Positions 1,131-18,867 are shown, numbered from the stretch's first letter. The stretch is 23,398 nucleotides of DNA from an uncultured bacterium (GCA_964534375.1 CAZHPN010000084.1:1-23398), one strand, 5' to 3'. Notes: generated from the sequence alone by a model not told the origin. Made by a program: numbers and translations.

Positions 1131-1136
1131 TTCCGA

Positions 1137-1459: not shown

Positions 1460-1487
1460 ACGTTAATGGCGATTTCCGCCGAGTCAA
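1460..1487 (-). promoter_or_regulatory. Candidate sigma70-type promoter for the bcs operon
   Basis: Minus strand TTGACT-N16-TAACGT in an AT-rich patch about 70 nt upstream of the bcsR-like start. Confidence 0.35.
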
Positions 1488-2057: not shown

Positions 2058-2312
2058 ATGAGCATCTTGAGCTGGATCGTTCTGGGCCTGGTCGCCGGCT
2101 GGTTGGCTTCCTTTGCCACGGGCCACGAGGAAGGATGCCTGACGGACGTGCTTTTGGGAATCGTCGGCGCCATGATCGGCGGCGCAATCTTCACCTGGTT
2201 CGGCGGCGCGCCGGTCCGTCATTTTAATTTGCACGCCCTCGTCGTCGCCACCGTTGGCGCGGTGATTCTGCTGGTCATCCGCGGCATCGTGGCCGGCCGC
2301 CGGTTCAGATGA
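2058..2312 (+). CDS. GlsB/YeaQ/YmgE family (transglycosylase-associated) small membrane protein
   Basis: MSILSWIVLGLVAGWLA...LLGIVGAMIGG...VVATVGAVILL pattern with three hydrophobic segments. GGAGGAG RBS at 2046-2052 precedes the ATG at 2058. Confidence 0.9.
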   Translation: MSILSWIVLGLVAGWLASFATGHEEGCLTDVLLGIVGAMIGGAIFTWFGGAPVRHFNLHALVVATVGAVILLVIRGIVAGRRFR

Positions 2313-2327
2313 GCCGACAGGCCCGCG

Positions 2328-3746
2328 ATGCAGTTCAATACCCCTAAGTTTCTTGTCTTTGTCGTCGCCGCGCTGGCGCTGTACTGGACCGCGCGGCGCG
2401 ATCGGCACCTGCGCGCGGCCGTCCTGGTCGTGGCCAGCTACGCGTTTTACGCGGCGGGCAACCCGCGTTTCCTCGTCATCCTGCTGGCCGTGTCCGTCAG
2501 CGATTTTTACCTTGCCCTTTGGATGGCGCGGCAATCGCAGGCGGCGCGGCGCCGGGCCATTTTGGTTTTGAGCCTGGTCGTCGATCTGGGCCTGCTCGCG
2601 TTCTTCAAATATGCCAATTTTTTCCTGGGCTCCTATGCCGGTCTGGCGGATTGGTTGCGCCTGCCCGTGGGGCCGCGGCACATTTCGCTCGCGGCGCCGG
2701 TCGGCATTTCGTTTTATCTTTTTCGCACCATCGGCCACATGGTCGACGTCTATCGGCGGAAGACTCCGCCGTGCGGCTTCCTGCCCGATTACCTGATTTT
2801 CATCGCGTTTTTCCCGGCGATTCTTAGCGGCCCGATCATGCGCGGCGGCAATTTTCTCCCGCAGTTGCCGCCCGAGCCGCGAATGACCCGCGAGCGCCTG
2901 CAGCGGATCTTGTTCTTGCTCACTTCCGGCCTCATCAAGAAATTTCTCGTCGCCGATTTCATTGCGGTCCGCTTCACGGACATGGTGTTTCAAGTGCCGC
3001 TCATGTACTCGTCGGCCGAAATGCTATTGGCGATCCTCGGCTACTCGCTGCAACTTTATGCCGATTTCGCCGGCTACACTGACCTCGCGCTGGGGCTGGG
3101 TCTCGCGTTCGGCCTGGAACTGCCCGAAAACTTCAATTTCCCTTACAAATCGATCAATCTGCGCGAATTCTGGCAGCGCTGGCATATTAGCTTTTCTTCC
3201 TGGCTGCGCGATTACCTTTACGTTTCGGTCGGCGGCTCGCGCGTCGACCGGCCGTGGAAAATCTACCGCAACTTGATGATCACGATGACCCTCGGCGGCT
3301 GGTGGCACGGCGCCTCGTGGAATTTCGTGCTCTGGGGCGCGCTCCACGGCGCCGGCTTGTGCGTGACGCGCTGGGTTCAGCGTCTGCGGCCACAGACGTC
3401 GCCCCCAGGTCCGGTGCGTCGCGCCTTGTCGGCCCTGGGCGTTTTCCTGTTCGTCACGCTTTGTTGGACGCTTTTCCGGGTGAGCGACTTCGGGCTCGCC
3501 AAAGACATCGTCGCGAATCTGCGCCTGGGATCCTGGCGCCTGGCCAATTTCCCGCTTTCCACGGCGGCGATGATGGGCGCGGCCGTAGTCGGCATGTGGC
3601 TGCCGGCCGGCGTCGATCGCCGTTTGCGCCAGGCGTACGGCTCTCTGCCCTTGGTTCTGAAGCTCGCGATTCTCGCCGCCGTCGGCTATGTCGCCTTCAC
3701 CTGGCTCGCGGATCGGACGCCGCATTTTGTCTACGAACAGTTTTAA
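2328..3746 (+). CDS. MBOAT family O-acyltransferase (AlgI/PatA/WssH/DltB-like)
   Basis: Motifs PVGISFY, FFPAILSGPIMR, QLYADFAGYTD, ENFNFPY, EFWQRWHISFSSWLRDYLY and the catalytic-His motif WWHGASWNF. C-terminal FVYEQF. Confidence 0.92.
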   Translation: MQFNTPKFLVFVVAALALYWTARRDRHLRAAVLVVASYAFYAAGNPRFLVILLAVSVSDFYLALWMARQSQAARRRAILVLSLVVDLGLLAFFKYANFFLGSYAGLADWLRLPVGPRHISLAAPVGISFYLFRTIGHMVDVYRRKTPPCGFLPDYLIFIAFFPAILSGPIMRGGNFLPQLPPEPRMTRERLQRILFLLTSGLIKKFLVADFIAVRFTDMVFQVPLMYSSAEMLLAILGYSLQLYADFAGYTDLALGLGLAFGLELPENFNFPYKSINLREFWQRWHISFSSWLRDYLYVSVGGSRVDRPWKIYRNLMITMTLGGWWHGASWNFVLWGALHGAGLCVTRWVQRLRPQTSPPGPVRRALSALGVFLFVTLCWTLFRVSDFGLAKDIVANLRLGSWRLANFPLSTAAMMGAAVVGMWLPAGVDRRLRQAYGSLPLVLKLAILAAVGYVAFTWLADRTPHFVYEQF

Positions 3747-3860
3747 CTTACGGAAATCTCATCGGATTTCACTCGGCGTCAAGGACGCAAAAAAACCATT
3801 GCGTTTTCCGAAACATCCAGTGTAGCTTAGAAGCTCTACGGGATTGGGGGGCAATATTAC

Positions 3861-5429
3861 ATGCTTGACATGCGAAAATGCCGTGTTGTGTTGGCCGCGG
3901 CGTCTTGCATCTTTCTTGTTGCCGCGTCAGCCTGGGCCGCCGACAATTGGAAACCGTTCATGCTCGCCGCCCAAAAATTGCGGGGCGATGGCCAGTACGA
4001 CGCGGCGGCGATCATGGCCCGCAAAGCCCTCGCGGCGGCGCGACGGGATTATGGGCCCGCACATCCGTTCGTCAAAACCTCGCTGCTTTTCTTGATTGAC
4101 CTGGCGCACGTGCACGGTTGGAAGGCTTACGAGGCCTACTACGGAGAGCGGCTTTACGAGTACGAAATCCTGGCCGCCCGGGCGGCTCTGGAAAAAACTA
4201 GACAGGAATTCAATTCGTCGATGCGACCGTTGGTCGACGCGGTGATCCACGACGGCATTTATGAATTCGAGGCGGAGGTCGGTTCCGCGGAACTGCGCAA
4301 GATGCAAACGAATCACCTTCCGGAGTTGCGGCGATTGGCCGACGAAACGTTCGCTCTGGGCGATGCTTACACCACCCACGACCCGGGAAAAGCGGCCGCT
4401 TTGATGCGTGGCGCGCTGCATTTGTTGCGCGATACGGCGCCCGCGACCGATCCGACCGCCATTCAACTGCACTACCGGCTGGCAGAAGTGGCGCTGCAGC
4501 AGAACGACATCGAGGAGGCCGGGGCCGAATACCGCCTGGCGCTCGAAGGGCTTCGGGCCTCCCACGAGGCCGACCGTTATTTGGCGATCGCCGCCCGGCT
4601 GGCGCTCGCGCGGGTATACATCGAGGAACTTAAGACAGACGAGGTGGACCGGCTTGCCCACGAGGCGCAGGCCCGCTATGACAAAGCGCCGCCAACAGAA
4701 AACAAATTCCTACAGGCCGAGATTTATTTCATCCAAAGCGTGGTCGCGCTTCAGCGAGGCGACTTGGCGGGGGCCGAGGCGCTGAACCGCAAGCAACTGG
4801 CGTTCGCGGAAGACGTCGGGGGGCCGGCGACCCCGGAGGTCGCCAGCGCGTTGGTGGCGCAAGCGTCGGTGCTGCTGATGCTCCAACGGCCGCGCGACGC
4901 CAATCCGTTGCTGCGTCGCGCCTTGGCGATTCAAGAGGAGACGCTGGGACCGGAGTCGCTGGACGTCGCGGGAACCTTGGGCAACCTGGGGCAATCTTAT
5001 TTGTTCTCGGACGATCCGGCCCTAGCCGAACCCTGCTACGTGCGGGCGTTGTCGATCCGCGTAAAAATCCAGGGGCCGGAACATCAGAACACCGTCGCCG
5101 TGATGGCGGCGTTGTTTCTGACCTATGTCGCGCAAAAAAAGCAGGACAGGGCGGACGCCATGATCCCGGCGTTCTCGTCCCTGATGGATAAATATTCGGA
5201 AAAACCGTGGATGGCCAAGGTGATGGTCGAGGTTGCCGACGGTTTCGCCGAGCTTGGCAAGACCAGGGAGGCGATTGGCATACTGAGCAAGGCCGTGCCG
5301 GTTCTGGAGAAGGATCCGGGGCTGCCAAACGACCCGGAAGGACGGGGAAGGGTCGAGGAGGCGAAGAACGCGCTCAAAGAATTGACCGCGCCCGAGACCG
5401 ACGAGGGGGCCGCAGCGGACGCCAAGTAG
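3861..5429 (+). CDS. Exported tetratricopeptide-repeat protein
   Basis: Sec signal peptide ending ASAWA. Kinesin-light-chain-type TPRs (ALAIQEETLGPESLDVAGTLGNLGQSY; RALSIRVKIQGPEHQNT). Alternative start at ATG 3870. Confidence 0.8.
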   Translation: MLDMRKCRVVLAAASCIFLVAASAWAADNWKPFMLAAQKLRGDGQYDAAAIMARKALAAARRDYGPAHPFVKTSLLFLIDLAHVHGWKAYEAYYGERLYEYEILAARAALEKTRQEFNSSMRPLVDAVIHDGIYEFEAEVGSAELRKMQTNHLPELRRLADETFALGDAYTTHDPGKAAALMRGALHLLRDTAPATDPTAIQLHYRLAEVALQQNDIEEAGAEYRLALEGLRASHEADRYLAIAARLALARVYIEELKTDEVDRLAHEAQARYDKAPPTENKFLQAEIYFIQSVVALQRGDLAGAEALNRKQLAFAEDVGGPATPEVASALVAQASVLLMLQRPRDANPLLRRALAIQEETLGPESLDVAGTLGNLGQSYLFSDDPALAEPCYVRALSIRVKIQGPEHQNTVAVMAALFLTYVAQKKQDRADAMIPAFSSLMDKYSEKPWMAKVMVEVADGFAELGKTREAIGILSKAVPVLEKDPGLPNDPEGRGRVEEAKNALKELTAPETDEGAAADAK

Positions 5430-5567
5430 CGCGACGTCGAGCGGGGGCCCGTCAAACAGGAAAAAGGCTTGCCATGTTGGAACAATGCGCGGACGCGGGG
5501 TCTGCAACAAAAAAAATGACGGGCAGCCCCGATAACCGCCGCGGTCGTGGGAGGATGCAAGTTGCGC

Positions 5568-5596
5568 TTGACAGCCAAGAACCTGCATAGTAAACA
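5568..5596 (+). promoter_or_regulatory. Candidate sigma70-type promoter for the 5799-15434 operon
   Basis: Perfect TTGACA at 5568-5573, N17, then a weak -10 (TAAACA) in an AT-rich patch. An inverted repeat TGAC-AAAAA-GTCA follows at 5610-5622. Confidence 0.3.
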
Positions 5597-5798
5597 GTAA
5601 AGTTAAGCATGACAAAAAGTCACGAGCGCCGCCCGCAGCGAAGAAACGGGGCTGTAGCGGCCTCGCCAAAAGAAAATAAGGGCGGCGTGGCGTGCGTCGG
5701 AAAGGGAGGCGCGCACCGCGAAATCGGCGGTGGGCAACAGTGCGGTAGTTATTGGTCGGTAATGAGCGGTTGAGGTATGTCGCGACCCGGGGGGAGTT

Positions 5799-6575
5799 TT
5801 GCCGAGCGATAGGAAAAGTTACATTTATTTTCACCGATCGTATCGGGTCGCCGAAACGGTCGAGCCGCGCGTTGGCCGGTTGCTGTTCGTCTTCGTCTTC
5901 GTTTTGGAAGTGCTGCTGATCGTGTTCCACCCGTTTCTGGTGCAAGCGCTGGTCTACTCGACAAGGAACGTGCTGACGGCGCTGGGCTACCATCCGACCG
6001 TGGTTTTTTGGCGCATGCTGTACCGGTCGTTGCCGTTGATCGACCTGCCCACGGTGTACCCGACGCCCCTCTTTTCCGCCGGCCTGTTTCTCGTCTCAAT
6101 CTTGTTGCCGCTGGTGATGTTCCTCATCAAAAAGGTCCCGCGCATGTTTGCCGGGTATATGCTGTATCTGTCCGTCATCAACGCCTCTTCGGCGGCGTTT
6201 TTCATCCTCGCGCCGCATAAATTTCCGTATGACATTTCAATTTTCTCGATGCTTTACACGGGCACGGTCGTCGGACTGTGGATCCTCATCCCGGTGATTC
6301 TCGTGATGGCGCTGTACTCCTTGCCGACCAGCATCGTGCCCAAAATGTTGTTCATCTTGTTCAACGTGGTGTACGCGATGATTTTCGCGCTGATCCGCTA
6401 CATATTCTTCCTCATCTGCCTGGAGGACGGCTCCGTCATTTTTATGGCGTTGTTCTATTTCGCGCTCGGGCCGCTGTTTGACTTCGTGTACCTCGTCGGC
6501 TTTTACACCTACTACGTCAGCAATCTCTCGGAAGCCATCCGGTTTAGCCGGCGGAGGTGGCGATGGCTATATTGA
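5799..6575 (+). CDS. Polytopic inner-membrane protein of unknown function, first gene of the putative EPS operon
   Basis: 258 aa with about 6-7 hydrophobic helices and a basic C-terminus. TTG start after a G-rich RBS (start uncertain). Its stop overlaps the GT2 start. Confidence 0.75.
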   Translation: MPSDRKSYIYFHRSYRVAETVEPRVGRLLFVFVFVLEVLLIVFHPFLVQALVYSTRNVLTALGYHPTVVFWRMLYRSLPLIDLPTVYPTPLFSAGLFLVSILLPLVMFLIKKVPRMFAGYMLYLSVINASSAAFFILAPHKFPYDISIFSMLYTGTVVGLWILIPVILVMALYSLPTSIVPKMLFILFNVVYAMIFALIRYIFFLICLEDGSVIFMALFYFALGPLFDFVYLVGFYTYYVSNLSEAIRFSRRRWRWLY

Positions 6576-7830
6576 TTCTCAAAACGTACATGATCATCGT
6601 CATCTTGATCCTGCTCATCTACGGCATCCGGCATTTTCTTTTCACGCTCAATCGACTGACCGGCGAGCAGCGCCTGTTTTACCAGGACATCATCGACAGC
6701 GAGCTGCCGCCGCTGTCGGTCCTCCTGCCATGCACAACGAGGCCGCCGTCGCCATGGGCATCCTCCAGGCCCTGGCGGCCGCCGATTACCCGAAAGATCT
6801 GCTCGAAATTATCCCGATCAACGATCACTCGATCGACGGCACGAAAGAAATTCTCGACGGCTTCGCCGCGCGCCATCCGTATGTCCGGCCGCTGCACCGT
6901 GACGGAAAAACCCGCGGCAAACAGGCGGCGCTGAACGAAGCGCTGACGATCGCGAAACACGACATTATCATCGTGTTCGACGCCGATTACACGCCGCAGC
7001 AGAGCGCGCTGCGCGATCTGGCCGTCTCCTTCAAAGATCCGGAAGTCGGGGCCGTGATGGGGCGCGTGGTGCCGCAAAACGCGGGGCACAATCTGCTCAC
7101 GCGGCTGCTCGATCTGGAACGAAGCGGCGGCTATCAGGTGGACCAACAGGCCCGCCACAATTACGGCCTGGTGCCGCAGTACGGCGGCACGATCGGCGGC
7201 TTTCGCAAGAAAATCGTGCAGGACATGGGCGGCTTCGACCCCACGGTGCTGGCGGAGGATACGGATTTGACCTTCCTGCTGTACATCCACGGCTGGAAGG
7301 TCGCGTACGCCAACCGCGTCGAGTGCTACGAAGAAGCGCCCGAAAACTGGGCCACCCGCAGCACGCAGATTTATCGCTGGTCGCGTGGCCATAACCACGT
7401 CATGATTAAAAATTTCGGCGGCCTGCTTCGCTCGCGCTACCTGCGGCGGATCGAACGGCTCGACGGCGCGCTGCTGCTGGCCTTGTACCTCATTCCGTTC
7501 TTCATGCTGACCGGGTTCATCGACTCGTTGATTCTGTTTTTCCTGGGCGAAATGCAGATCATCGACAGCATTCTCGTGTTCTTTTTTGTCGCCGGCTACA
7601 ATGCCTTCGGCAACTTCGCGCCCTTCTTCCAGATCGGTTCGGCCGCGCTGCTGGACGGCACGACCCGACGGCTGCGGCTGCTGCCGTTCCTGCTGTTCTA
7701 TTTCATTTTGAACGTCTGGACGATCAACATGGGCCTCTTCGCCGCCGTGTGGGATCGCGCGACCAAGCGCCAGGTCATGTGGGCCAAGACCGAACGCTAC
7801 AAGAGGAGCCGGCTTGAAGCGGAATCGTGA
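6563..7830 (+). CDS. Processive GT2 polysaccharide synthase (PgaC/IcaA/CESA-like), interrupted by a 1-nt frameshift at about 6728-6730
   Basis: ATG at 6563 after GGAGG. The first frame gives MAILILKTYMII...ELPPLSVLL and the second continues MHNE...INDHSIDGT...GKQAALN...VFDADY...AEDTDL...QIYRW followed by TM helices. The D,D,D,QxxRW signature is complete. Restoring one base gives about 422 aa. Confidence 0.88.
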
Positions 7831-9082
7831 TCGTCGCCGCGGCGTCGCGCGGCTGGCGGTCGCCGCCGCCTGCCTCGCGCTGTTGCTTGCGCTGTCGTGC
7901 GGCTACCAGCGCCCCTACGTCCGCGAGGCCGACTCCATCGGCTACCGCATCGACGAGGCGGCGGCGCGCGCGCCCGAGCCCGGGCCGCTGGCGGCGTTGA
8001 ATGTCGCGCCCACGCACTTTTCCGCGAGCGCCGTGCTGGTGAAGATTTACATCGGCCTGTTGTTCGCGGCGATGCTGACCATTCCGTACGTGCCCTCGGT
8101 GGTGGAACTCTACCGGCCGCTGGACGACAAGCCGTTGTTCATCAATCTCGAATATCGGCGCAACCCGCGCTACTTCAGCAAATCGTTCCGCGACAAAATT
8201 CTAAAGATGCAATCGCGGCGCACGGACGGTCAGGACGGCCTCGCGGCGGGCAAATTGTCGAGAGAGGAGAGCGTCGAATACGCCGACTGCCTGGACGTGG
8301 GCGAGCGCGAAAAAGTCGCCGAGTTGGTCTGCCTGTCCGGCGACCTGACGATGGGCGAAGAGGCGGCGCTCGAGAATGACGCCTTTGTGCGCGGCTCGGC
8401 GCGCCTCGGCCCGCATTGCCGGTTGCGCGCCATGGCGGTCAACGGCATGGCCGAACTCGGCCCGGGCGTCGTCGTGGAGCGGTGGCTGGACGCGGAGAAA
8501 CGCCTGTTGATCGGCGACGGCTGCGACCTCGGCGTGATTTGTTCGAGCGGCGGCTTGATCGAACTGGGCAAAGACGTTTCCTTCCACCGGCTGTACGGCG
8601 CGCAAATTCGGACCGCCGGCGCGAACGGCCCGCGCCCGTCCTTCAAGCGGCCCGCGGCGTCGGCCCACGGAAACGGGGACCGGCTGTTGCGGACGATCGC
8701 GGACGAGTTAGATTACTATGGCAGCGACCACACGGTGCTCGCCGACGGCCGCGTGGAGCAATCGATCGTCGTGCGCGGCCATCTGCACGCGATGGAAAAT
8801 GCCATCTTACTCGGCTCGGTGCGTGTTCACGGCAACGCGCGATTCGGCCGCAATGTCACGGTCGTCGGCAATGTCTTCTGCGACGGCTCCGCACTGTTTG
8901 CCGAAAACTGCACCGTGCTCGGCAACGTCTTTTCCCAAAAAGAAATCCGGGCGGGCGCGGGTTGCACCTTCGGCAGCGCCGGAGGGGTCAAGTCGGTCAT
9001 CGCCAAAAAGAACGTGCTCCTGGGGCCGGCCGTGGTCATTTACGGTTACGTCGCGTGCGAAGGACGGGGGCGCGCGCAATGA
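7814..9082 (+). CDS. Membrane-anchored protein with two blocks of beta-helix (bactofilin/polymer-forming-like) repeats
   Basis: TTG start after AGAGGAG. N-terminal signal with possible lipobox LALSC, then a TM helix (KIYIGLLFAAMLTIPYV). Repeats of about 17 aa, such as GSVRVHGNARFGRNVTV / VGNVFCDGSALFAENCTV / LGNVFSQKEIRAGAGCTF. Confidence 0.7.
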   Translation: MKRNRDRRRGVARLAVAAACLALLLALSCGYQRPYVREADSIGYRIDEAAARAPEPGPLAALNVAPTHFSASAVLVKIYIGLLFAAMLTIPYVPSVVELYRPLDDKPLFINLEYRRNPRYFSKSFRDKILKMQSRRTDGQDGLAAGKLSREESVEYADCLDVGEREKVAELVCLSGDLTMGEEAALENDAFVRGSARLGPHCRLRAMAVNGMAELGPGVVVERWLDAEKRLLIGDGCDLGVICSSGGLIELGKDVSFHRLYGAQIRTAGANGPRPSFKRPAASAHGNGDRLLRTIADELDYYGSDHTVLADGRVEQSIVVRGHLHAMENAILLGSVRVHGNARFGRNVTVVGNVFCDGSALFAENCTVLGNVFSQKEIRAGAGCTFGSAGGVKSVIAKKNVLLGPAVVIYGYVACEGRGRAQ

Positions 9083-10938
9083 AATACGCGATCCCCGCTG
9101 TTTTGTTCGCGGCGCTTACGGCGTTCCTGGTCTTTCGCGCGGCCAGCGACGCCGCCGACGGCCGGCGCCTGGCCGACGACGCGGAATTCCGGGTGGCGCT
9201 CGCCTACAACCCAAGCCTGCTCAAGGACCACAGCGGCATCCTCGAGGCTTACAAAAGCGTATTGGAAGAAGAAGGCGTGCCGTATCAATTGCTGGACACG
9301 AACGATTTCTACAAGATCGACCCGACGCGATACGCACGTCACAAGCCGGTGATCATTTTCGCGGACGGAATCAACCAGGTGATTCCGATGGACATCCGGA
9401 CGTGGGTCTATCCGTACATCCAAAACGGCGGCAACGTGGCGGCAATTTACGACGCCGGCGTTAAGGATCGGCATGGCAATTATCGGCCGCGGGGCCAATT
9501 CGCCGAACTGCTCGGGTTGGATTACAGCACCTACGACCGCCTGCGCGACCGCGCGTACACGACGGGCAATGTGCAGTTTCACGACAACGACGCGCTGGAC
9601 TATTTCGAAATTCCGCCAGGCTGCACAGATGCGGAGCGCTATCTGACGTCGTATATGTACGGGCGGCTCGAATTCCCCATCGCGCGCACCGCCTGGATCG
9701 ACGAGGCGGCCGCGGCCAATTTGCGGGCCGACGTGGTGGCGTCGTCGGAGGACGAGCATTTTCCGGCGGTCGTGATTCATCGCTACGGGGCCAGCCGTGT
9801 GCTCTATGTGAATCTGCCCCTGGGCTATATCAAAGGCCAATCCTACGACATGCCCCTGCGCTCGGTTCTACGGTCCTTCCTTTTTCGCGAGCTGCGGCTG
9901 CCGCATCTGAGCAACACGCCGTTCGGCAAACCGATTTTTATCTTCAATTGGCATATCGACAGCGGCGTGGAGCGGGACGCCATTCCGCAAATGATCGCCA
10001 AGAGGTTTTTCCGCCCCCAACTCGCGTGCTCGTTTGACATCTGCGCCGGCGATTGGCTGGAGGACCCCGGCGACGCCGCCGGCTTCGACGCCTGCGGCGG
10101 CGGTCGCGAGACCGCCGCGAGCTTGGAGCGATTCGGCACGGTCGGCTCGCACGGGGGGTGGGCGCACAACTGGTTTGCCGACGGCGTCGACACCGGCACG
10201 CTGACCTCCGACGAGCTGTTTGCCGCGATCGAAAAGAATTCGGCGTGCCTGGCCGAGGTGGTCGGCCATCCGATCCTCGAATATGCCGCCCCCGGCGGCG
10301 CGTTCCCGCAGCCGGCCTCGGGCCGGTATCTGGAGGAGAAGGGATACGTCGCGTATTACAACACGGGCGATGCGGGTTGCGCGCCGAATCGCACTTTCTG
10401 GGAGGGGCGCATGGTCAGCCCGCATGCGATCGCTTTCCCAATCATGCCGATGTGGCAGGCGGCCTCATTTGTCGAGATCGCGACGCAATACGAATACGAT
10501 CCGGAAGACTTTCGCCAGTGGCTGACAGGGGTTTTGGATTACACCGTCCGTCACGGCGTGGCGCGCATGCTGTATTCGCATCCGTATGACGTGATCTACT
10601 ATTTCTCCGACCTATACCGCAACGCGTTTGAATCTTTCCTCGATCGATTGGAGGAAGCCCAAGCGCAGGAGCGGGTCGCGATCAAGACCATGACCGACTA
10701 CGCGACTTTCTATTTGCGGTTTCTGGAGACCAAGGCGAAATACAAACTCGACGGCCGCACCCTCGCCGTCGAACTGCATAATGACCAATCGCTCTTGGGC
10801 GTGACGCTGTCGCTGCCCAAGGAGCGGTACACCGTGACCGCCGAGCGCGACCTGATCGTTACGGAGACCCCAAACGACTACTTGGTGGCGATAGCCGATG
10901 ACGCCCGAGACCGCACGATTCGCGCAACTCTGCGCTAG
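9079..10938 (+). CDS. Exported polysaccharide deacetylase-like protein (CE4/NodB-like domain plus N-terminal alpha/beta domain), 619 aa
   Basis: ATGA overlap with the upstream stop at 9079-9082. N-terminal hydrophobic signal or anchor. CE4-like motifs WHIDS, GSHGGWAH, YAAPGG and YSHPYD. Confidence 0.78.
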   Translation: MKYAIPAVLFAALTAFLVFRAASDAADGRRLADDAEFRVALAYNPSLLKDHSGILEAYKSVLEEEGVPYQLLDTNDFYKIDPTRYARHKPVIIFADGINQVIPMDIRTWVYPYIQNGGNVAAIYDAGVKDRHGNYRPRGQFAELLGLDYSTYDRLRDRAYTTGNVQFHDNDALDYFEIPPGCTDAERYLTSYMYGRLEFPIARTAWIDEAAAANLRADVVASSEDEHFPAVVIHRYGASRVLYVNLPLGYIKGQSYDMPLRSVLRSFLFRELRLPHLSNTPFGKPIFIFNWHIDSGVERDAIPQMIAKRFFRPQLACSFDICAGDWLEDPGDAAGFDACGGGRETAASLERFGTVGSHGGWAHNWFADGVDTGTLTSDELFAAIEKNSACLAEVVGHPILEYAAPGGAFPQPASGRYLEEKGYVAYYNTGDAGCAPNRTFWEGRMVSPHAIAFPIMPMWQAASFVEIATQYEYDPEDFRQWLTGVLDYTVRHGVARMLYSHPYDVIYYFSDLYRNAFESFLDRLEEAQAQERVAIKTMTDYATFYLRFLETKAKYKLDGRTLAVELHNDQSLLGVTLSLPKERYTVTAERDLIVTETPNDYLVAIADDARDRTIRATLR

Positions 10939-12829
10939 GTTGGCGCTGCTGGCAATCGCCGCCGGCTGCGCGGCCGTCGGCCGCCCGCCGGCATCCGCGC
11001 CGCCCGCCGCGCTCGACCCGCCGCCCCTGGCGGCGCGGCCCGCCGCGGCGCCGCCGGCCGTCGCCGCCGTCCCACCGGCCAGCGCGGCGCATCCGGCCGC
11101 GCGCCTCGGAATGCACTATCTCGAAATGGCCCCGTGTTTTTTCCTTTCGCCGTACTTCTTCCACCATCTGGCGATCGACGCCCTGCGCACCGGCCGCTAC
11201 GCGTCCGAGGCGCGGGAATATCTGCTGTGGGCCATGAGCCGCCTCAACGAACCCGACCGGTTCGACGTCCACGGCTCGCTTTACGATTACGTCGTGTGCG
11301 CCGACGGCGCAGAAATCTCCACGCTCCAATATGACTCCGTCGACGGCTACGCGGCGCAATTGTTGATGTTGTGGGCCGAATATCTGCGGCAGACCAACGA
11401 TCGGGCGACCGTGGCGCTCTATGCCGCGAAGATTCGCCAGGTCGCTCTGCTGCTGGTCGACTTGCAGGATGTCGACGGCTCGATCTTCGCGACGACCTGG
11501 AGCCCGGCCAAATACCTGATGGACAACGCCGAGGCCTACGGCGGCTTGCGCGCCTTCCTCGAAATTGGACGGCGTTTGCGCTGGAGGGAACTCGGCGATT
11601 ATGCCGACGCGGCGGAGAACCTGCGCGCGGCGATTCTCGAACATTTCTATGAGCCGCAGACGGGGCTCTTTCACTGGGCGATCGCAAAGGACAAAAAAAG
11701 CCCGTCGCGCTGGGAAAACTATTACCCGGACGCCCTGGCCCAGATTTTCCCGGTGGTCTACGGCGTCGTCGAGCCGCGCAGCGATGTGGCGCGAAGCGTC
11801 ACCGAGCAGTTTCTCGCTCGCTACGCCGACGCGGGCAAAGATGTCGCGCAGCGGCTGGTGGTGCAGCGCCTGCGCGCGCTCATGCGCCCCGACGAACCCG
11901 TGGCCCAATTGGCGCCGCCGGCCGCGCCCGCCGCGCCGCCGGCCCTGGGCGAGCCGCCGCCGAGCGCGGCGCATCCCGCCGCCCGGTTGGGCCGTCACTA
12001 CATCGACATGGACGCGTGCTTCTTCCTGCTCGCCTATAATTTCGATTACATGGCGATCGACGCCCTGCGCACCAATCGTTATGTGGACGAGGCGAAGGCT
12101 TTCTTGCTCTGGTCGATGAGCCGGCTCAACGACAGCGACCGCTTCGGCCTAAGCGGCACCATCTACGATTACATCGTTTGCTGCGACGGCCGGGAGATTT
12201 CCACGTTGCAGTACGAGGCGGCCGACTCGACGGTCGCGCAGTTGCTGTTGTTGTGGGCGGAATACCTTCGGCGGACGGGCGACCGCGCAACCGTGGCGCA
12301 ATACGCGGGCAAGATTCGTCAGGCCGCGCGACTGTTGCTGGACCTGCAAGACGGCGACGGCCTGATTGTCGCCATGAACTGGCACGAGACCAAGTACCTG
12401 ATGGACGACGCCGAAGATTACGGCGGTTTGCAGGCCTTTCTCGAAATCGGCGCGCGGATGGGCTGGCGCGATCTCGATGATTTCCGCAAGGCGGCGGCGA
12501 CGCTGCGCCGCGCCATCATGCAGCATTTATTCGATTCCGACCGGGGCCTGTTTTATGCGGAACTCGACGGAACGCAGAAGGCGCCGTCGCATTGGGAAAC
12601 GTATTACCCCGACGCGCTCGCGCAGATTTTCCCGGTGATCTTTCAGGTCGTCGATTCGCGCAGCGAACTGGCGCGGCGCCTGACCGACGAGTTCCTCCGC
12701 CGGTACCCCAACGGATCGGCCGAGGAAATCGGGCATCAATTGCTGGTGCGGCGGCTGCGCGAGTTGATGCGGCCCGGCGAAACCGCCGCCGAGCCCGCGG
12801 CGGTCGCGCCGGGGTGGAGGAAACGATGA
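10898..12829 (+). CDS. Lipoprotein with two tandem copies of a helical, six-hairpin glycosidase-like domain
   Basis: Lipobox IAAGC and Pro/Ala linkers. Two domains of about 270 aa share GxxYDY, KYLMD(N/D)AE and YYPDALAQIFP. The fold assignment is an inference from the helical, acidic and aromatic pattern. Confidence 0.7.
   Translation: MTPETARFAQLCARLALLAIAAGCAAVGRPPASAPPAALDPPPLAARPAAAPPAVAAVPPASAAHPAARLGMHYLEMAPCFFLSPYFFHHLAIDALRTGRYASEAREYLLWAMSRLNEPDRFDVHGSLYDYVVCADGAEISTLQYDSVDGYAAQLLMLWAEYLRQTNDRATVALYAAKIRQVALLLVDLQDVDGSIFATTWSPAKYLMDNAEAYGGLRAFLEIGRRLRWRELGDYADAAENLRAAILEHFYEPQTGLFHWAIAKDKKSPSRWENYYPDALAQIFPVVYGVVEPRSDVARSVTEQFLARYADAGKDVAQRLVVQRLRALMRPDEPVAQLAPPAAPAAPPALGEPPPSAAHPAARLGRHYIDMDACFFLLAYNFDYMAIDALRTNRYVDEAKAFLLWSMSRLNDSDRFGLSGTIYDYIVCCDGREISTLQYEAADSTVAQLLLLWAEYLRRTGDRATVAQYAGKIRQAARLLLDLQDGDGLIVAMNWHETKYLMDDAEDYGGLQAFLEIGARMGWRDLDDFRKAAATLRRAIMQHLFDSDRGLFYAELDGTQKAPSHWETYYPDALAQIFPVIFQVVDSRSELARRLTDEFLRRYPNGSAEEIGHQLLVRRLRELMRPGETAAEPAAVAPGWRKR
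11081..12781 (+). repeat. Intragenic tandem duplication (units 11081-11896 and 11963-12781, offset 882 nt)
   Basis: Both units begin SAAHPAARLG.HY and end RLR.LMRP.E. They are collinear throughout at protein and DNA level. Confidence 0.95.
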
Positions 12830-13737
12830 GAAGTGGACGGCTGCGGCGGGCGGTTTTCTGGGCGGCGGCGGCGGCGTTGCTGGCGCCCTGCGCCGGCCGC
12901 GCGTTCGGCGCCGAACCGCCGGACGTCGGGGCGGCGCTGCGGTCGGTCGTGCGTTCCGACTACACCGACGATGAAATTACGCTTTTGCGCGAGCAGTTGC
13001 GCTACCGCGTGGACGCCGGTTTCAACTACGATTACCTGAACCCGCATCCTGGCTTCGGCGATTGGTGGGGCGGCGAGGCGGGGATTCGCGCCCAGGTCCA
13101 CCCGGCCGTGACCGTATTCGGCCGGCTCGGCGGCGCGCTCCGGCCGGGCGGCGCCGACCAGCCGAGGATCGATGACGTTCTCGGATCGGCCGGCGTGATC
13201 GCCGAATTGCACCGCGACATGTCCTCGACCACCACGCTGTTATGGGGCAGCAACTCGGTGTACCTGCCGACCTTCGAGGCGAACCAGGAATTCGAAATCG
13301 GCTTTCCGGTCTCCGACGACGTCGTGATCGCTTTCACGCCGGGTCTTTTCTACAGCAAGGATATTTATCGTCAGAGCGTGGTCGGGTTTCTGATCGGACC
13401 GCTTGTCCACTTTTATGCGTTTGCCGTCGGCTACTCGTTCCTTTACGGGCAGGTCGAGCCCGGCAACATGAAATCGATGACGCACACCTTTACGGGGAGT
13501 TACGACCGCGAGGGTTGGTTCGAGAGCAGCATCGCCGTCGAGTTCGGCAACGGCAACTATCTGACGACCTATGCGCCCGTAGTGGTGAAGGAGAACACGC
13601 AATTCGTCGGCGTGCAACTTTCGCACCGCCACTGGATCGGCGTTGACTGGGGCCTCTACGGCCAGCTTCGTTTCACGAAAATATACACCGAGTACGAAGC
13701 CTGGGGCGGCACGATCGGCGGGTTTTACGAGTTTTGA
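12826..13737 (+). CDS. Outer-membrane beta-barrel protein, YaiO-like (303 aa)
   Basis: ATGA overlap with the upstream gene and GGAGG RBS. Signal peptide, alternating amphipathic beta-strands rich in Gly and aromatics, and a C-terminal BAM-type signal GGFYEF. Confidence 0.75.
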   Translation: MRSGRLRRAVFWAAAAALLAPCAGRAFGAEPPDVGAALRSVVRSDYTDDEITLLREQLRYRVDAGFNYDYLNPHPGFGDWWGGEAGIRAQVHPAVTVFGRLGGALRPGGADQPRIDDVLGSAGVIAELHRDMSSTTTLLWGSNSVYLPTFEANQEFEIGFPVSDDVVIAFTPGLFYSKDIYRQSVVGFLIGPLVHFYAFAVGYSFLYGQVEPGNMKSMTHTFTGSYDREGWFESSIAVEFGNGNYLTTYAPVVVKENTQFVGVQLSHRHWIGVDWGLYGQLRFTKIYTEYEAWGGTIGGFYEF

Positions 13738-13756
13738 CCCGCGCAAGGAGCGTTCG

Positions 13757-14764
13757 ATGAATCAGGAACAGGATCCGTTTTTCGATGAACCCCCGCGAAA
13801 ACGCTTTCATCTGCGCCCGTGGATCGCGGCCGGCGTCGTCTTGGTCGTCGCCGCCGGCGTTTGGGACCAGATCGACAAGCGCGCGAATCGCGTCCAGCCG
13901 GCGGCGGCGGTGGCGGCGCACACCATTCGCGTCTGGGCCATGGGCGCCTCGGAGACCTTCGGCCAGGGCGCGGGCGTGCTGCAATCCTGGCCCATGCAGT
14001 TCGCCGCCGAACTGGGCCGCGCGCACCCGACCGTGAAGTGCGAGGCGCGCAACCTGGCCACCGCCGGCGTCAATACCTCGGAGGCGCTCCAGTTTCTCAA
14101 GGCGGCGCTGCGCAAGGTCGTCGACGGCGAGCCGAGCGCCGCGGCCGGCGACGACCAACTCGCCCGGCCGGATTACGCCATCCTGTGCTTCGGCGTCAAT
14201 AACATCTGGAACCTGCACGCGGCCACGGAGCTCGTGAACGCCGGGGACAGCGACTCGGCGGGTTTGCACAAAGCGATGCGCATGGTGCACGCCGCCAAGC
14301 CCCGCGATCTGGCGACGACGCCGCGTCAAACGTACTATTTGGCGTTCAGCGGCGAGGGCGGCTGGCGGATCTTTTTCCCGGATTTCAACGACCCGTTTCT
14401 CGTCTCGTGGGTGCGAAAAGACCTGCAAACGATCGCCCAGACCCTCAAGGAAAACCGGATCAAGCCCATTTTCCTGACCTACTACTTCGACTACTTCCCG
14501 GAGTTGAACACGCTCATCCGCAAATTGGGGCCCGAGATCGGCGTCCCGGTCATCGACGTCGAGCACGCGGTGAGTTTCCTCGTGGCGCACAATTGGGTCA
14601 TGGCGCAGACGGACACCGTGCATCTGAACAAGGACGGCTACAGTTTTGTCGCCAACGAAGTGGTTAAACAATTCGCCCCGTTGGCCGGGCTGGAAACGGT
14701 TGGCGCCGTGCACGCGCGGGCCGGCGGCGCGGGACCGATTGCCGCGGGCGAACCAACGAAGTGA
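13757..14764 (+). CDS. Membrane-anchored SGNH/GDSL hydrolase-fold protein (335 aa)
   Basis: AAGGAG RBS and ATG at 13757. N-terminal TM. Block I GASETFG, block II NLATAG, block III FGVNN, block V DTVH. Confidence 0.8.
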   Translation: MNQEQDPFFDEPPRKRFHLRPWIAAGVVLVVAAGVWDQIDKRANRVQPAAAVAAHTIRVWAMGASETFGQGAGVLQSWPMQFAAELGRAHPTVKCEARNLATAGVNTSEALQFLKAALRKVVDGEPSAAAGDDQLARPDYAILCFGVNNIWNLHAATELVNAGDSDSAGLHKAMRMVHAAKPRDLATTPRQTYYLAFSGEGGWRIFFPDFNDPFLVSWVRKDLQTIAQTLKENRIKPIFLTYYFDYFPELNTLIRKLGPEIGVPVIDVEHAVSFLVAHNWVMAQTDTVHLNKDGYSFVANEVVKQFAPLAGLETVGAVHARAGGAGPIAAGEPTK

Positions 14765-14837
14765 TCCGGGTCGCGGGCGCGCCGGCGCGAAGCGGTGATT
14801 GCCGCGGCGGCGCGCGAACGACGGAGGGCCATGATTC

Positions 14838-15434
14838 ATGTGGCGCGTATTGCTCATCCCCTGCGTAGTGGCCATGGCTGCCGTGTTGGCGGCGCCCGAG
14901 GTCTTCGCCGGCGACTACGGCGAAACCACTTGGGGCATGTCGCCGGCGAGCGTGAAAGCCGTCGTCAAGAACATGACCCTGTTGCAGGAGGGGCCGGAGT
15001 CGCTCTTGTACAGCGGCGACGTGGCGGTGGTGCCGGCCGAAATCGCTTTCCGCTTCCATAATTCGAGGCTGGAGGAAGTCGTCATCCTTTTTAAACGGAC
15101 CTATGGCAAGACGGATACCGAACTCGAAGCGGCCGCAAAAGCGGACGACTACGGCAAAGTCGTCGCGCTCATTTCGGGCCAGTATGGCAACCCGCTGAGA
15201 AGCGGCGCGAATTCACTTCGCCCCGGCTCGGAAGAATACTGTTCGCGCGGAAACGCCGAAAAAATGGCCTGCGTTTGCTTCAAGAAAATCAGTCTTTCGA
15301 GTTTGTGGGAGACCGGCGACACGCGCATCGTCGCGCAGTTGACGGGCGAAGACGAGAGGATCGTCCTTCGGATTCGTTACTCCGACAAGAACTCCGACAG
15401 CCGACACACCCCCACGGGGACCGGCGGACTCTGA
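14838..15434 (+). CDS. Exported hypothetical protein
   Basis: Signal peptide ending VFA, followed by a 'TWGMSPASVK' motif. Coding-like GC3 pattern and GGAGG upstream. Confidence 0.7.
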   Translation: MWRVLLIPCVVAMAAVLAAPEVFAGDYGETTWGMSPASVKAVVKNMTLLQEGPESLLYSGDVAVVPAEIAFRFHNSRLEEVVILFKRTYGKTDTELEAAAKADDYGKVVALISGQYGNPLRSGANSLRPGSEEYCSRGNAEKMACVCFKKISLSSLWETGDTRIVAQLTGEDERIVLRIRYSDKNSDSRHTPTGTGGL

Positions 15435-15450
15435 TTCGAGCCAGGTTTGA

Positions 15451-15469
15451 GCATTACGATATGTAATGC
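15451..15469. promoter_or_regulatory. Operator-like inverted repeat
   Basis: GCATTAC-GATAT-GTAATGC, a perfect 7-bp inverted repeat in an AT-rich intergenic patch. Confidence 0.3.
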
Positions 15470-15622
15470 CTGTTTACGTTATTTCCTGTATTCCTAGCCG
15501 AACGCCATAGTCATCCGCTTGGATAACCAGTTGATTCTTGGTGCTTTTTGCGAAATCAACGCGTTGGCGCCGCGCTTGCGATTACCCCGATTAATCGAAG
15601 AACCAGAAAGGGGGTGATCGCG

Positions 15623-15757
15623 GTGACGGACTTGGTCCTGAACCTCGGTCTTGTTTCGGCATTTCTCGCGACGGTTACGGCGACTCTGGTGGTGTTGGAG
15701 CGCCGCAGCAGAACCCGACGGAAAGACATTTTCGGCCAGACCCACGGACGCGACTGA
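15623..15757 (+). CDS. 44-aa single-TM peptide with a basic tail
   Basis: Near-perfect extended SD (AAGGGGGTGATC) before GTG 15623. Product MTDLVLNLGLVSAFLATVTATLVVLERRSRTRRKDIFGQTHGRD. Confidence 0.55.
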   Translation: MTDLVLNLGLVSAFLATVTATLVVLERRSRTRRKDIFGQTHGRD

Positions 15758-15903
15758 CAGACCGGCATCCGGCCCGCGGTTTCGTCGCGACGAATCTCGG
15801 CGGATGGTTCGCGGGCGATCCCGGGCCCCCCGTCCGTGAAGACGCCTACGGCCGGCCCGCCGTGCTCGGGCGATGCTAGTCATGGCCCTCGTCGCCGCCC
15901 GAA

Positions 15904-16333
15904 GGGCGAACGCAAGGTTCGCCCGTACGCGACAGGCACACCAGGGACGGCTCGCCGTGCCCGCCCGCTCGTTTGACGTGGGCTCGCCGGCCGTGCAGGA
16001 GCGGGGTCCCGTGCCCGCCCCGAATTGGCGCGCCGATGGCGCGGACCCCAATTGCCCCTCGCGAAAATCCGAATCATCTGGGCAATGCGTGTACTCTGTG
16101 TGACCTGTGGATGTCCGATATTTAATCTGTGGATGTCTGATATTGTTCCCCATGATTACGCGGCTTCGCCCCGCGATACGTCATTCCCGCGGCTGCGGGG
16201 ATCCAGGCAGAGCGGCAGCGGCGCGTCTCCGTGACCGCCCCCGGGATGACGCGCCGGCCGGCGCGGAGCGCCGGCCGCGCAGGGGCGGTTCGCGAACCGC
16301 CCCTGCATCCGCGCCGATGGCGCGGATGCAGGG
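15904..16333. repeat. Cluster of REP-like palindromes plus copy A of a composite repeat
   Basis: GGGCGAAC-GCAAG-GTTCGCCC (15904-15924); GTCATTCCCGCGGCTGCGGGGATCC (about 16180-16204); a perfect 28-bp palindrome at 16279-16306; a 15-bp inverted repeat at 16301-16333. Confidence 0.75.
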
Positions 16334-16503
16334 CTGTCGAAGACGGCTGTTCTTGTCATCCCAATCCCGCGCCGATCGAAGCGCTTTCTTGACGGCGAGG
16401 TACGGGGCGCGTATCTATGAACCCAACGGCCGCCGTTGCGAGACTTGCTAAGCTCGCGGCAGGCTCACGAATGAAACCGTTCACCTTCCGACCGGAGAAC
16501 CCG

Positions 16504-18867
16504 ATGAAGTATTGTCGTTCGCCATGGGTTTTCTTTCTTGCCGCCGTCGCGGCGATCGTGCTGTCGGCCTCCTGTTCATCCAGCGGCGGCAGCGCCGCCG
16601 GCGGCGCCGTCGCGGACGATGACGATGACGACGCCTCACCCACCGACGACGATTCCTCGCCGGCCGCGGACGTGCTCGACTACGTCGATCCGCTGATCGG
16701 CACGGGCAGCTTCGGCATCGGCTACGCCTCGTGCTATCCGGGGCCGAGCGCGCCGTTCGGCATGGTCGGCGTCAGCCCCGACACCACGCTCGACGGCTTC
16801 GAATATTACGTGGTGCATTGTTCCGGATACTACTATTACGATCCGCAGATCCGCGGTTTCTCGCACACCCACATGCAGGGCACGGGCGTGGCGGATTACG
16901 GCAATATCCTGGTCATGCCGATGAACCGGAAGCCGGCCGCGCCGATCGCGGAGCCGACCTTCCGCAGCTCGTTCTCCCACGCCAACGAGACGGCGGCGCC
17001 GGGCTACTACAGCGTGACGCTCGACGACCCGCAGGTCTTCGCCGAACTCACCGCGACCGGATGGACGGCCATGCACCGCTACACGTGGCAGGGCGGCGGC
17101 GAACCGTACGTCGTGGTTGACCCGTCCTATTCGATCGGCGGCTCCGTGGCGCTCGAGCAACTGATTTCGGGGAATTGGGTGAACAACGCCACAGTGGCGA
17201 TCGACGCGTCGACCCAGACGGTCTCCGGCATGACCAATTTCAGCGGCGGCTTGACCAGCGGACACCCGGGCGGCACGGACATTTACTACGTGGCGCAATT
17301 CTCGCAGCCGTTCACGGCCTACGGCACGTGGACCAACGGCGAGCCGGCGGACGGCAGCGTTGCGGCGGAAGGCCACGACGTCGGCGCGTATTTCGGCTTT
17401 GCCGCGGGCGGCACGCCGTTGCTGGTCCGCGTCGCCGTCAGTTTCCAGAGCGTCGCGCAGGCGCAGGCCAACCTGGCCGCGCAGGCGCCGGAATGGGATT
17501 TCGAGGGCATGATGGACGCCACGCGCGACGCCTGGCGGCAATATCTCGGCAAGATCGAGGTGACCGGCGGCTCGCTGTCCCAGCGTCGCGTCTTCTATAC
17601 CGCGCTCTACCACGCCGGCCTGATGCCGCACGATTGGACGGAAACCAACGGCCAATACCTCGGTTTCGACGAGAAAATCCACGACGCCGGCGGGCGCCGG
17701 TACTACACCGATTTTTCGCTCTGGGACACGTTCCGCACGTTCCACCCGCTGCTGACCATGCTCGACCCGGTGCGCACCGCGGATTTCATGCAGTCGCTGA
17801 CGCTCATGTACGAACAGGGCGGCTCGATGCCGAAATGGCCGGCGGGCATCGCCTACACGCACTGCATGGACGGCACCAGCGCGGACATCGTGCTGGCGGA
17901 GGCCTACCTGAAGGGCATTCGCAATTTCGATTACGACAAAGCCTACGAAGGTTGCTACGCGCATGCGACCCACGACGTGCCCTACGACGGCCGGACGGGT
18001 CTCAAAGACTACATCACGCTCGGCTACGTGCCCGCCGATCACGAACTGCAAGGCCTGACCTACACCCTGGAATATTGCTACGACGATTCGGCGCTGTCGT
18101 CGTGGGCGGCGGCGATGGACAAGGCGGACGACGCGGCGATGTTCCTCAAACGCAGCGGCAACTACCGCAACTACTGGGATGCATCGACCGGCTTCCTGCG
18201 GCCGCGCAACGCCGACGGCTCGTGGGTGACGGTGTTCAACCCGGCGTTTTTTTACGATGTGCATTACACCGAAGGCGACGCCTGGCATTACACGTTCATG
18301 GTTCCGCACGACATCCCGGGCCTGACGGACCTTTTCGGTTCGTCGTCGGCGCTGGTCGACAAGTTGAACTACGCCTTCGAGATGAACGTGCCGTTTCAGT
18401 ATTTCGATTGGCTGCCCGGGGCGTACCTGTGGCTCGGCAACGAGCCGAGCTTGTTCCATCCGTACGTATTCGCCGCCGCCGGCCGGCCCGACCTGACGCA
18501 GAAGTGGATCCGCTGGGCGATGGCCACGAAGTACCGCGACTTTCCCGGCGGCCTGCCGGGCAACGACGACGCCGGCACGATGTCCGCGTTCTACATCTTT
18601 TCGGCCCTCGGCTTTTTTCCGCAGGCCGGCTCGGTTCGCTACGTGCTCGGCAGCCCGATTTTCGACGCCGCGGTCGTGCATTTGCCGAACGGCGATCTGA
18701 AAATCACCGTCGCGAACAACAGCCCCGACAACGTCTACGTGCAGTCGGCGACGCTCAACGGCCAAGCCCTAACGACGCCGTTCTTCACGCACGACCAGAT
18801 CGCCAACGGCGGCACGCTGGAGTTCGTCATGGGGCCGACGCCCGCCGGCGGCGGCGGGTGGCGTTGA
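16504..18867 (+). CDS. GH92 family glycoside hydrolase (alpha-mannosidase-like) lipoprotein, 787 aa
   Basis: GGAG RBS and ATG at 16504. Lipobox LSASC and Asp-rich linker. Motifs YVDPLIGTG, PFGMV, GFSHTH..GTG, FSLWDTFR, TLEY.YDD, YTEG, GNEPS and GNDDAGTMSA. Confidence 0.93.
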   Translation: MKYCRSPWVFFLAAVAAIVLSASCSSSGGSAAGGAVADDDDDDASPTDDDSSPAADVLDYVDPLIGTGSFGIGYASCYPGPSAPFGMVGVSPDTTLDGFEYYVVHCSGYYYYDPQIRGFSHTHMQGTGVADYGNILVMPMNRKPAAPIAEPTFRSSFSHANETAAPGYYSVTLDDPQVFAELTATGWTAMHRYTWQGGGEPYVVVDPSYSIGGSVALEQLISGNWVNNATVAIDASTQTVSGMTNFSGGLTSGHPGGTDIYYVAQFSQPFTAYGTWTNGEPADGSVAAEGHDVGAYFGFAAGGTPLLVRVAVSFQSVAQAQANLAAQAPEWDFEGMMDATRDAWRQYLGKIEVTGGSLSQRRVFYTALYHAGLMPHDWTETNGQYLGFDEKIHDAGGRRYYTDFSLWDTFRTFHPLLTMLDPVRTADFMQSLTLMYEQGGSMPKWPAGIAYTHCMDGTSADIVLAEAYLKGIRNFDYDKAYEGCYAHATHDVPYDGRTGLKDYITLGYVPADHELQGLTYTLEYCYDDSALSSWAAAMDKADDAAMFLKRSGNYRNYWDASTGFLRPRNADGSWVTVFNPAFFYDVHYTEGDAWHYTFMVPHDIPGLTDLFGSSSALVDKLNYAFEMNVPFQYFDWLPGAYLWLGNEPSLFHPYVFAAAGRPDLTQKWIRWAMATKYRDFPGGLPGNDDAGTMSAFYIFSALGFFPQAGSVRYVLGSPIFDAAVVHLPNGDLKITVANNSPDNVYVQSATLNGQALTTPFFTHDQIANGGTLEFVMGPTPAGGGGWR

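Follow-up and report, generated by a model that had tools for sequence, protein, structure and literature searches.

The 23.4 kb contig analysed here (contig C84, hereafter the window; GCA_964534375.1 CAZHPN010000084.1:1-23398) comes, entire, from a 6.3 Mb metagenome-assembled genome (MAG) of an uncultured bacterium, 94% complete. It carries six overlapping genes, G1 to G6, which are probably the local copy of a widespread and as yet unnamed synthase-dependent exopolysaccharide system. The product of this cassette is most likely a sugar polymer of N-acetylated amino sugars, which the encoded proteins would build, trim and export. The synthase-dependent exopolysaccharide systems that are understood are few: cellulose, poly-N-acetylglucosamine (PNAG), alginate, Pel and the postulated Nfr glycan. 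The cassette would add one more to these, with three or four of its components drawn from unnamed families, and no description of the gene set was found in open-access papers and bioRxiv. The window's own copy is probably inactive, its synthase gene carrying a frameshift.

Do the six genes form a unit outside this contig? A sequence search with G4 gave 509 proteins, and the 120 listed are nearly all unnamed or "hypothetical". A scan with the G4 alignment through one genome per species (185,579 species genomes) returned 138 relatives, from which 79 loci were kept; 52 of these have at least 3.6 kb upstream and at least 4.5 kb downstream of G4. Genes at the loci were called as open reading frames (ORFs), clustered by BLAST and combined with tblastn searches of the window proteins. 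G2 and G3 are each present in 51 of the 52 loci, G1 in 50, G6 in 45 and G5 in 36, and 31 loci hold all of G1-G6. An earlier account made from the sequence alone (the sequence-only reading) had proposed a distinct system with six core genes, and this check for their conserved co-occurrence is positive. The only locus of the 52 to miss G1, G2 and G3 together is L082, from a Fimbriimonadaceae MAG, where an orphan G4 (10001-11713) stands without G1, G2, G3, G5 and G6. In the reverse test, a G1 profile matches 4 of 41 related genomes, once each and each time at the cassette; all four are among the five genomes that carry G4, and in the fifth the contig ends inside G2. The nearest sampled relative, a genome of a sister genus in the same family (G001, locus L006), also holds a G4 homolog.

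According to record titles, the loci belong to Nitrospirota, Thermodesulfovibrionia, delta-proteobacterial and Syntrophaceae MAGs, Negativicutes (Sporomusa, Phascolarctobacterium faecium), Sulfurovum, Aquificota (Hydrogenobacter, Thermocrinis, Persephonella), Elusimicrobia, Fibrobacteraceae, Acidobacteria/Aminicenantes, Omnitrophota, Firestonebacteria, Cloacimonadota, Actinomycetota and others. G1-G6 is a real conserved cassette with a wide but sparse distribution. In the window its genes are closely packed, with overlaps in the ORF list of 13 nucleotides (nt) for G1/G2, 17 for G2/G3, 4 for G3/G4, 41 for G4/G5 and 4 for G5/G6, followed by gaps of 19 nt between G6 and G7 and 73 nt between G7 and G8. 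All eight genes lie on the plus strand, in agreement with the order, overlaps and gaps of the sequence-only reading, and the protein roles that it gave for G1-G8 hold after family, fold and motif checks.

G2 (6563-7830, +) encodes a PgaC-like membrane synthase of glycosyltransferase family 2 (GT2), although the local gene is frameshifted. The protein matches GT2 families in Pfam (E 2e-24) and carries a single hydrophobic helix at the N-terminus and three to four at the C-terminus. Across 34 homologs, with a mean column identity of 61%, there is no variation in the motif residues of D, DxD, ED and QxxRW (D89, D141/D143, E233-D234 and Q270/R273/W274). These motifs and the C-terminal transmembrane helices make G2 a membrane GT2 of processive type, as in synthase-dependent systems. 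The homologs are about 420 amino acids (aa) long with no extra domain, and the fused C-terminal domain for binding cyclic di-GMP (c-di-GMP) of the NfrB type is absent from them.

The G2 gene is not one open frame, a break that the sequence-only reading left out of its observations. It starts at ATG 6563 and falls into an N-terminal transmembrane part (6563-6729) and a catalytic and C-terminal transmembrane part (6730-7830), which lie in different frames with the break at about 6728-6730. Three relatives have the two parts joined in a single frame, the stretches matched by the two query pieces being separated by exactly one codon, and the family consensus at the break reads ...SVLIPMHNEE... with an invariant proline. 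The window has therefore lost 1 nt from the codon of this proline, just 5' of the conserved MHNE motif. Contigs of four public runs were compared over 6300-7300, and three of them cover the break site with no gap and no other letter: the probable source run (X1), a DNA run from another sample and study (X2; piece 6664-6956, depth 2.7) and an RNA library (X4; piece 6495-6875, depth 3). Because the sequence is identical in the three runs, the frameshift is most likely real in this population, with the limit that depths at the site are low (7.4, 2.7 and 3) and that contigs hide minor alleles.

It is unlikely that the break is an assembly or sequencing artefact, or that it is bypassed by recoding, so that the local operon would be functional. 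An artefact would fit the low depth of the site, the dropping of rare variants from contigs and the intact state of every other cassette gene, and a -1 slip after the CCA codon would give back the consensus reading ...LLPMHNE.... However, the X2 and X4 contigs carry the same sequence as X1, and the break site is not a homopolymer and does not form a slippery heptamer. As G2 has lost one base, the local system probably makes no polymer. At the sister-genus locus L006 (9378-10884), G3 is only 139 aa long, which corresponds to its C-terminal beta-helix alone, and the G2 match ends at residue 294 of 366; damage or rearrangement may have affected this copy of the cassette too.

G1 (5799-6575, +) is a polytopic inner-membrane protein of about 260 aa with several hydrophobic helices. 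It has no match among Pfam or NCBIfam families, and the Atlas clusters that hold it are unnamed. In an alignment of 36 sequences, D228 is invariant and R13, R16, F142-P143-Y144, R200-Y201 and W254 are nearly so. A profile built for G1 matches 599 representatives at E<=0.001 out of 1.84 billion proteins, and the 150 listed among these matches are all at most 360 aa long. A relationship to exosortases, suggested by the Atlas (score 0.78, TM-score 0.47), was rejected, as both values are below the bars of the tool and no Cys is conserved. A fusion of G1 and G2 in Fibrobacteraceae, suspected from ORFs of about 600 aa, was also discarded, the matches to the two proteins lying in different frames.

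A model of the G1-G2 complex reached an interface score (ipSAE) of 0.79 (0.79, 0.75 and 0.81 in separate runs), against 0.00 for the best of 3 controls. At least 73% of the contacts are common to the runs, and the predicted local confidence (pLDDT) of the partners is at least 82. The mark used for ipSAE is reached by 116 of 157 solved complexes and by 2 of 215 mismatched pairs, and is a rough guide here, where own alignments were used. In the modelled interface the transmembrane helices and parts of the cytosolic domain of G2 face the conserved N-terminal motif, the FPY motif and the invariant-Asp region of G1. The model supports binding of G1 to G2 as a putative inner-membrane co-subunit of the synthase but does not show it.

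G3 (7814-9082, +) is modelled with high confidence (pLDDT 90.0) as a single N-terminal transmembrane helix followed by two beta-helical domains. In an exhaustive VIA search, the C-terminal beta-helix superposes on BacA (2n3d; Z 8.2, root-mean-square deviation (rmsd) 2.8 over 102 aa) and on a Thermus bactofilin (6ria; Z 8.1, rmsd 1.6 over 88 aa), Z values near 8 being in a range that is common for unmatched models. A Foldseek search of the model against the PDB gave nothing at E<=0.001. The window protein scores 16.8 bits on PF04519, below the cut-off of 27.9, and sub-threshold matches to this family at E<=0.01 occur in 32 of 39 G3 family members (best 1.7e-7). Most homologs start directly with the transmembrane helix, and lysine plus arginine in the family amounts to 0.77 before this helix and 2.8 after it; because of both features, the beta-helical part probably faces the cytoplasm. 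The sequence-only reading had recognised a beta-helix protein, which stands, and can now be corrected to a bactofilin-like and probably cytoplasmic one. Weak Hexapep, LpxD and LpxA matches raised the option of a left-handed hexapeptide acyltransferase, which was rejected: the rmsd is about 11, compared with 1.6-2.8 for bactofilins, and no His is conserved in the family.

G4 (9079-10938, +) is a predicted periplasmic polysaccharide deacetylase of three domains, with a fold of carbohydrate esterase family 4 (CE4) at its center. The model (pLDDT 93.1, pTM 0.92) comprises an N-terminal domain resembling domain B of glycoside hydrolase family 42 (GH42), the central CE4 fold and a C-terminal beta-sandwich, the two outer domains resembling domains of GH42 and GH164 enzymes. 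The central domain (282-551) superposes on HP0310 (3qbu; Z 22.1, rmsd 2.5 over 236 aa) and on ArnD (Z 21.4), and H292, D294, H358, H363 and H501 are invariant in the alignment. For the whole model the top two Foldseek matches are Agd3 (8.6e-17) and PelA (3.6e-12). The likeness to Agd3, a member of CE18, is one of fold only, since a phmmer search of G4 against all PDB chains returned 0 matches at E<=1 and homology to Agd3 is not detectable.

G5 (10898-12829, +) is a probable lipoprotein with two tandem domains that resemble six-hairpin glycosidases. Its halves share 58% identity over 267 residues (E 2e-117), which reveals a tandem duplication, and the relatives, at 270-340 aa, have a single copy of the domain. 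Weak Pfam matches (Bac_rhamnosid6H, MGH1-like GH), the name of its Atlas cluster ("Six-hairpin glycosidase-like", score 0.95) and a profile match to cellobiose 2-epimerase (5zig, E 0.0023) all suggest a protein of this kind; phmmer against the PDB gave chance-level matches only.

G6 (12826-13737, +) is an outer-membrane beta-barrel of the YaiO family and the proposed export pore. It passes TIGR04390 (43.5 bits, cut-off 32), and the homolog at locus L010 scores 100.8 bits on PF19413 (YaiO; 1.1e-28, cut-off 23.9). G6 was not found in two loci with downstream room from monoderm Actinomycetota (L057 and L061), which fits its role as the outer-membrane part; both of these loci have the epimerase described below, and neither G5 nor G6 was found in them. 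The YaiO barrel is also absent from three Acidaminococcales loci (L072, L074 and L087, including Phascolarctobacterium faecium). In L074 and L087, G5 is followed by a protein of about 600 aa that belongs to no Pfam or NCBIfam family; in L072 a member of its cluster is encoded two genes 3' of G4, with no G5 between. This protein is possibly another outer-membrane part. The synthase is thus encoded with a protein of CE4 fold (G4), a barrel that scores above its family cut-off (G6) and a protein that is hydrolase-like only (G5). The proposal of the sequence-only reading that these genes fill every role of a synthase-dependent system is supported by the roles of G1-G6 and by their co-occurrence.

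A seventh gene, of about 400 aa, encodes a non-hydrolysing UDP-GlcNAc (UDP-N-acetylglucosamine) 2-epimerase. It occurs in 45 of the 82 loci inspected, and 34 of the 52 loci with enough sequence on both sides have it. It matches PF02350 (3e-99) and the WecB equivalog TIGR00236 (397 bits, cut-off 210). The gene is always next to the cassette, though not at a fixed place: it can precede G1, lie between G5 and G6, replace G5 or follow G6, and in Aquificota an epimerase-G6 pair is found ahead of G1. At one locus (L046, about 5700-14800) the apparent order is G1 G2 G3 G5 G4 G4 G5 epimerase G6, due either to a duplication at this locus or to genes that are split. An epimerase is missing from the cassette in the window and in its sister genus, but the genome of the window has one on another contig (C156). 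Mainly because a WecB-type epimerase adjoins the cassette in so many loci, UDP-N-acetylmannosamine (UDP-ManNAc) is proposed as donor. This points to a polymer that contains ManNAc and is partly de-N-acetylated, so that the partly deacetylated N-acetylhexosamine glycan of the sequence-only reading gains support from the CE4-fold G4 and is sharpened towards ManNAc by the epimerase.

How might these proteins work together? Gene order, conservation, folds, motifs and family scores are direct results; from them we infer the donor sugar, the direction of each step, the role of G3 and, from the model only, the contact between G1 and G2. G2 would polymerize a UDP-N-acetylhexosamine, most likely UDP-ManNAc where the cassette encodes the WecB epimerase, and as an inverting GT2 it would produce a beta-linked chain, threading it through a channel formed with G1. 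The steps that follow are suggested by fold, family and neighborhood. In the periplasm, G4 may take off part of the N-acetyl groups and G5 may trim or clear the polymer, which would then cross the outer membrane via the G6 barrel. From the cytoplasmic side, G3 could scaffold or position the synthase.

Several points weigh against this interpretation. No member of the system has so far been tied to a polymer, an enzyme activity or a phenotype. Pfam and NCBIfam scans of G1-G8 found no c-di-GMP receptor domain (PilZ, I-site or MshEN), an intersubunit site being invisible to such scans. The score of the G1-G2 complex is the model's own confidence and may reflect memory of PgaCD-like or BcsAB-like pairs, although G1 belongs to no known family. 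The ORF caller and the BLAST clustering are crude, and the loci were chosen via G4, which makes all counts conditional on its presence. The donor sugar is proposed from gene neighborhood only, and 18 of the 52 loci, the window included, have no epimerase in the stretch examined. G4 has no significant CE4 sequence match (none in Pfam for the window protein, and E 0.57 for its profile against the PDB), and a precomputed PF01522 match is found in only 5 of 120 homologs, among the matches listed out of 509. The assignment of G5 comes from sub-threshold matches, and the protein is best called hydrolase-like.

Could the cassette instead be a divergent PNAG system of the Pga/Ica type, making beta-1,6-GlcNAc, in which G1 stands in for PgaD, G4 and G5 together for PgaB and G6 for PgaA? 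PgaC/IcaA (TIGR03937) is the best curated family for G2 in NCBIfam (1e-32), identity to E. coli PgaC is 28% (E 7e-30), G4 and the N-domain of PgaB have the CE4 fold in common, and the window cassette itself is without an epimerase. Even so, the idea is improbable. The 113.6 bits of G2 are far under the equivalog cut-off of 422, and G1, G4, G5 and G6 match no Pga model in Pfam or NCBIfam at E<=0.01. G3 has no Pga counterpart, and the WecB epimerase that adjoins most of the cassettes is unneeded for PNAG synthesis. With G1, G3, G4 and G5 also below all Pfam and NCBIfam cut-offs, the view of the sequence-only reading that the set matches no known operon is upheld. It is very unlikely that G2 transfers just one sugar to a lipid carrier or protein, with a cassette that decorates an envelope component and secretes no polysaccharide: its closest solved relative by sequence is a small membrane GT2 (6yv7, E 1.1e-16), which we take to be an archaeal mannosyltransferase of N-glycan synthesis, but BcsA is also matched (2.5e-9), the QxxRW and ED residues and the C-terminal transmembrane helices are invariant, and a co-conserved periplasmic deacetylase, hydrolase-like protein and outer-membrane barrel suit a translocated polymer.

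A synthase-dependent exopolysaccharide system thus remains the preferred reading of G1-G6. A more specific version of it is a further synthase-dependent family that makes a partly de-N-acetylated, beta-linked ManNAc polymer with a new two-protein G1-G2 synthase, which a membrane-anchored, bactofilin-like filament of G3 holds or arrays; this combination is tentative and, taken as a whole, rather doubtful. If it is true, the ManNAc polymer would be one not yet described from any carrier organism, and the G3 filament the first cytoskeletal element to be encoded within a polysaccharide secretion operon. In the part of the literature consulted, a bactofilin-like scaffold that organizes polysaccharide secretion has been suggested to date in one case alone, the cortical belt of cellulose producers, which is itself unexplained (PMC8892547). 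The cassette gives direct access to three matters: a matrix polymer that may be based on ManNAc, the way in which a channel partner is recruited by a minimal GT2, and whether a bactofilin-like scaffold organizes polysaccharide secretion. Besides many uncultured phyla, its carriers include cultured organisms that lend themselves to experiment: Sporomusa, Phascolarctobacterium faecium (a commensal of the human gut), Hydrogenobacter and Sulfurovum.

The sequence-only reading had also counted G7 and G8 in the system, but they are not conserved members. G7 (13757-14764, +) is a membrane-anchored SGNH/GDSL protein (Lipase_GDSL_2 1.4e-11, 45.7 bits, cut-off 32.9) and possibly an O-acetyl transferase or esterase. 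It appears to be a lineage-specific accessory, found in the sister-genus locus L006 (28% identity) and in 0 of the 59 other loci with downstream room. G8 (14838-15434, +) is an exported protein, its signal peptide read from the sequence alone; it has no Pfam or NCBIfam family and is present in 0 of 59 loci with downstream room and in none of L006-L009. Directly 5' of the cassette lies a gene for an exported tetratricopeptide repeat (TPR) protein (3861-5429, +; TPR_12, 6.6e-29), possibly a lineage-specific periplasmic scaffold. A gene like this one immediately precedes G1 in L006 and also lies upstream of it in L038.

Other neighbors were considered as cassette members and rejected, having no linkage to the cassette in other loci. 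A BcsQ-type ATPase is encoded at the very start of the contig (342-1130, -; TIGR03371 178.8 bits, cut-off 157.85; PF06564 1.7e-31), and a cellulose-type system may lie beyond the contig end near it. Upstream of the cassette is a DltB-like membrane-bound O-acyltransferase (MBOAT) protein (2328-3746, +; 172.8 bits, below the cut-off of 375); MBOAT and SGNH pairs O-acetylate polysaccharides in other systems. Downstream is a GH92 glycoside hydrolase (16417-18867, +; PF07971 at 1.2e-164). Over 1100-16500, 4 promoters were found against 3.4 expected from shuffled sequence and 27 terminators against 19.4 (sd 4.4), neither being above expectation. An Rfam scan of the window gave no match and no riboswitch, and there are no tRNA genes.

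Compared with known systems, the cassette has no gene-for-gene counterpart in Pga, Nfr or yaiSPXO. PgaABCD/IcaADBC follows the same general plan and likewise combines a membrane GT2 and small membrane partner with a periplasmic CE4-fold de-N-acetylase, glycoside hydrolase activity and an outer-membrane pore. However, no component of the cassette is an ortholog of PgaABCD. The partner G1 has about 260 aa whereas PgaD has 137 (by coordinates), the deacetylase has another domain architecture, and the hydrolase-like function resides in a separate six-hairpin-like protein. The pore is of the YaiO family and lacks TPRs, and the cassette adds the bactofilin-like G3 and often a WecB epimerase.

The E. 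coli NfrB-NfrA-YbcH system, as described in the part of the source consulted, is postulated to make a WecB-dependent ManNAc polymer, the phage N4 glycan receptor (NGR; PMC8669472). In both cases the system is synthase-dependent and the donor is thought, for Nfr on the same partial source, to come from a non-hydrolysing UDP-GlcNAc 2-epimerase, which here is often encoded in or beside the cassette. G2 aligns with NfrB over 124 N-terminal residues only (E 1e-4), and Pfam and NCBIfam reveal no c-di-GMP-binding domain, NfrA-type TPR barrel or YbcH among G1-G8. A deacetylase is absent from Nfr but present in the cassette.

The uncharacterized yaiS-yaiP-yaiX-yaiO cluster of E. coli K-12 is similar in its list of parts, with a deacetylase, a GT2, a beta-helix protein and a YaiO barrel. 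Its only links to the cassette are the YaiO family membership of G6 and the 25% identity between G2 and YaiP. YaiS (185 aa), annotated "putative deacetylase YaiS" and presumably an LmbE/PIG-L-type enzyme, cannot be aligned with G4 in a meaningful way. YaiX carries the annotation of an acyltransferase and is, we assume, a left-handed hexapeptide helix, whereas G3 fits bactofilins. The yai cluster has no G1 or G5, and BLAST of G6 against YaiO is not significant.

Single components recall other proteins. Agd3 (CE18) and PelA, of the galactosaminogalactan and Pel systems, are like G4 multi-domain, secreted or periplasmic de-N-acetylases of exopolysaccharides and match it in fold, but their flanking domains differ and sequence similarity is not detectable. 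Bacterial Agd3-like clusters, in the portion of the source consulted, are all described as encoding a glycosyltransferase of the cytoplasm and a membrane protein with several spans, together with GH114 genes that co-occur (PMC7229062), a gene content, on that description, other than that of this cassette. The C-terminal beta-helix of G3 superposes over nearly the whole bactofilin domain at an rmsd of 1.6 to 2.8. G3 differs from bactofilins in having a true N-terminal transmembrane helix and a second beta-helix, similar to ice-binding proteins, and in being encoded inside a polysaccharide operon.

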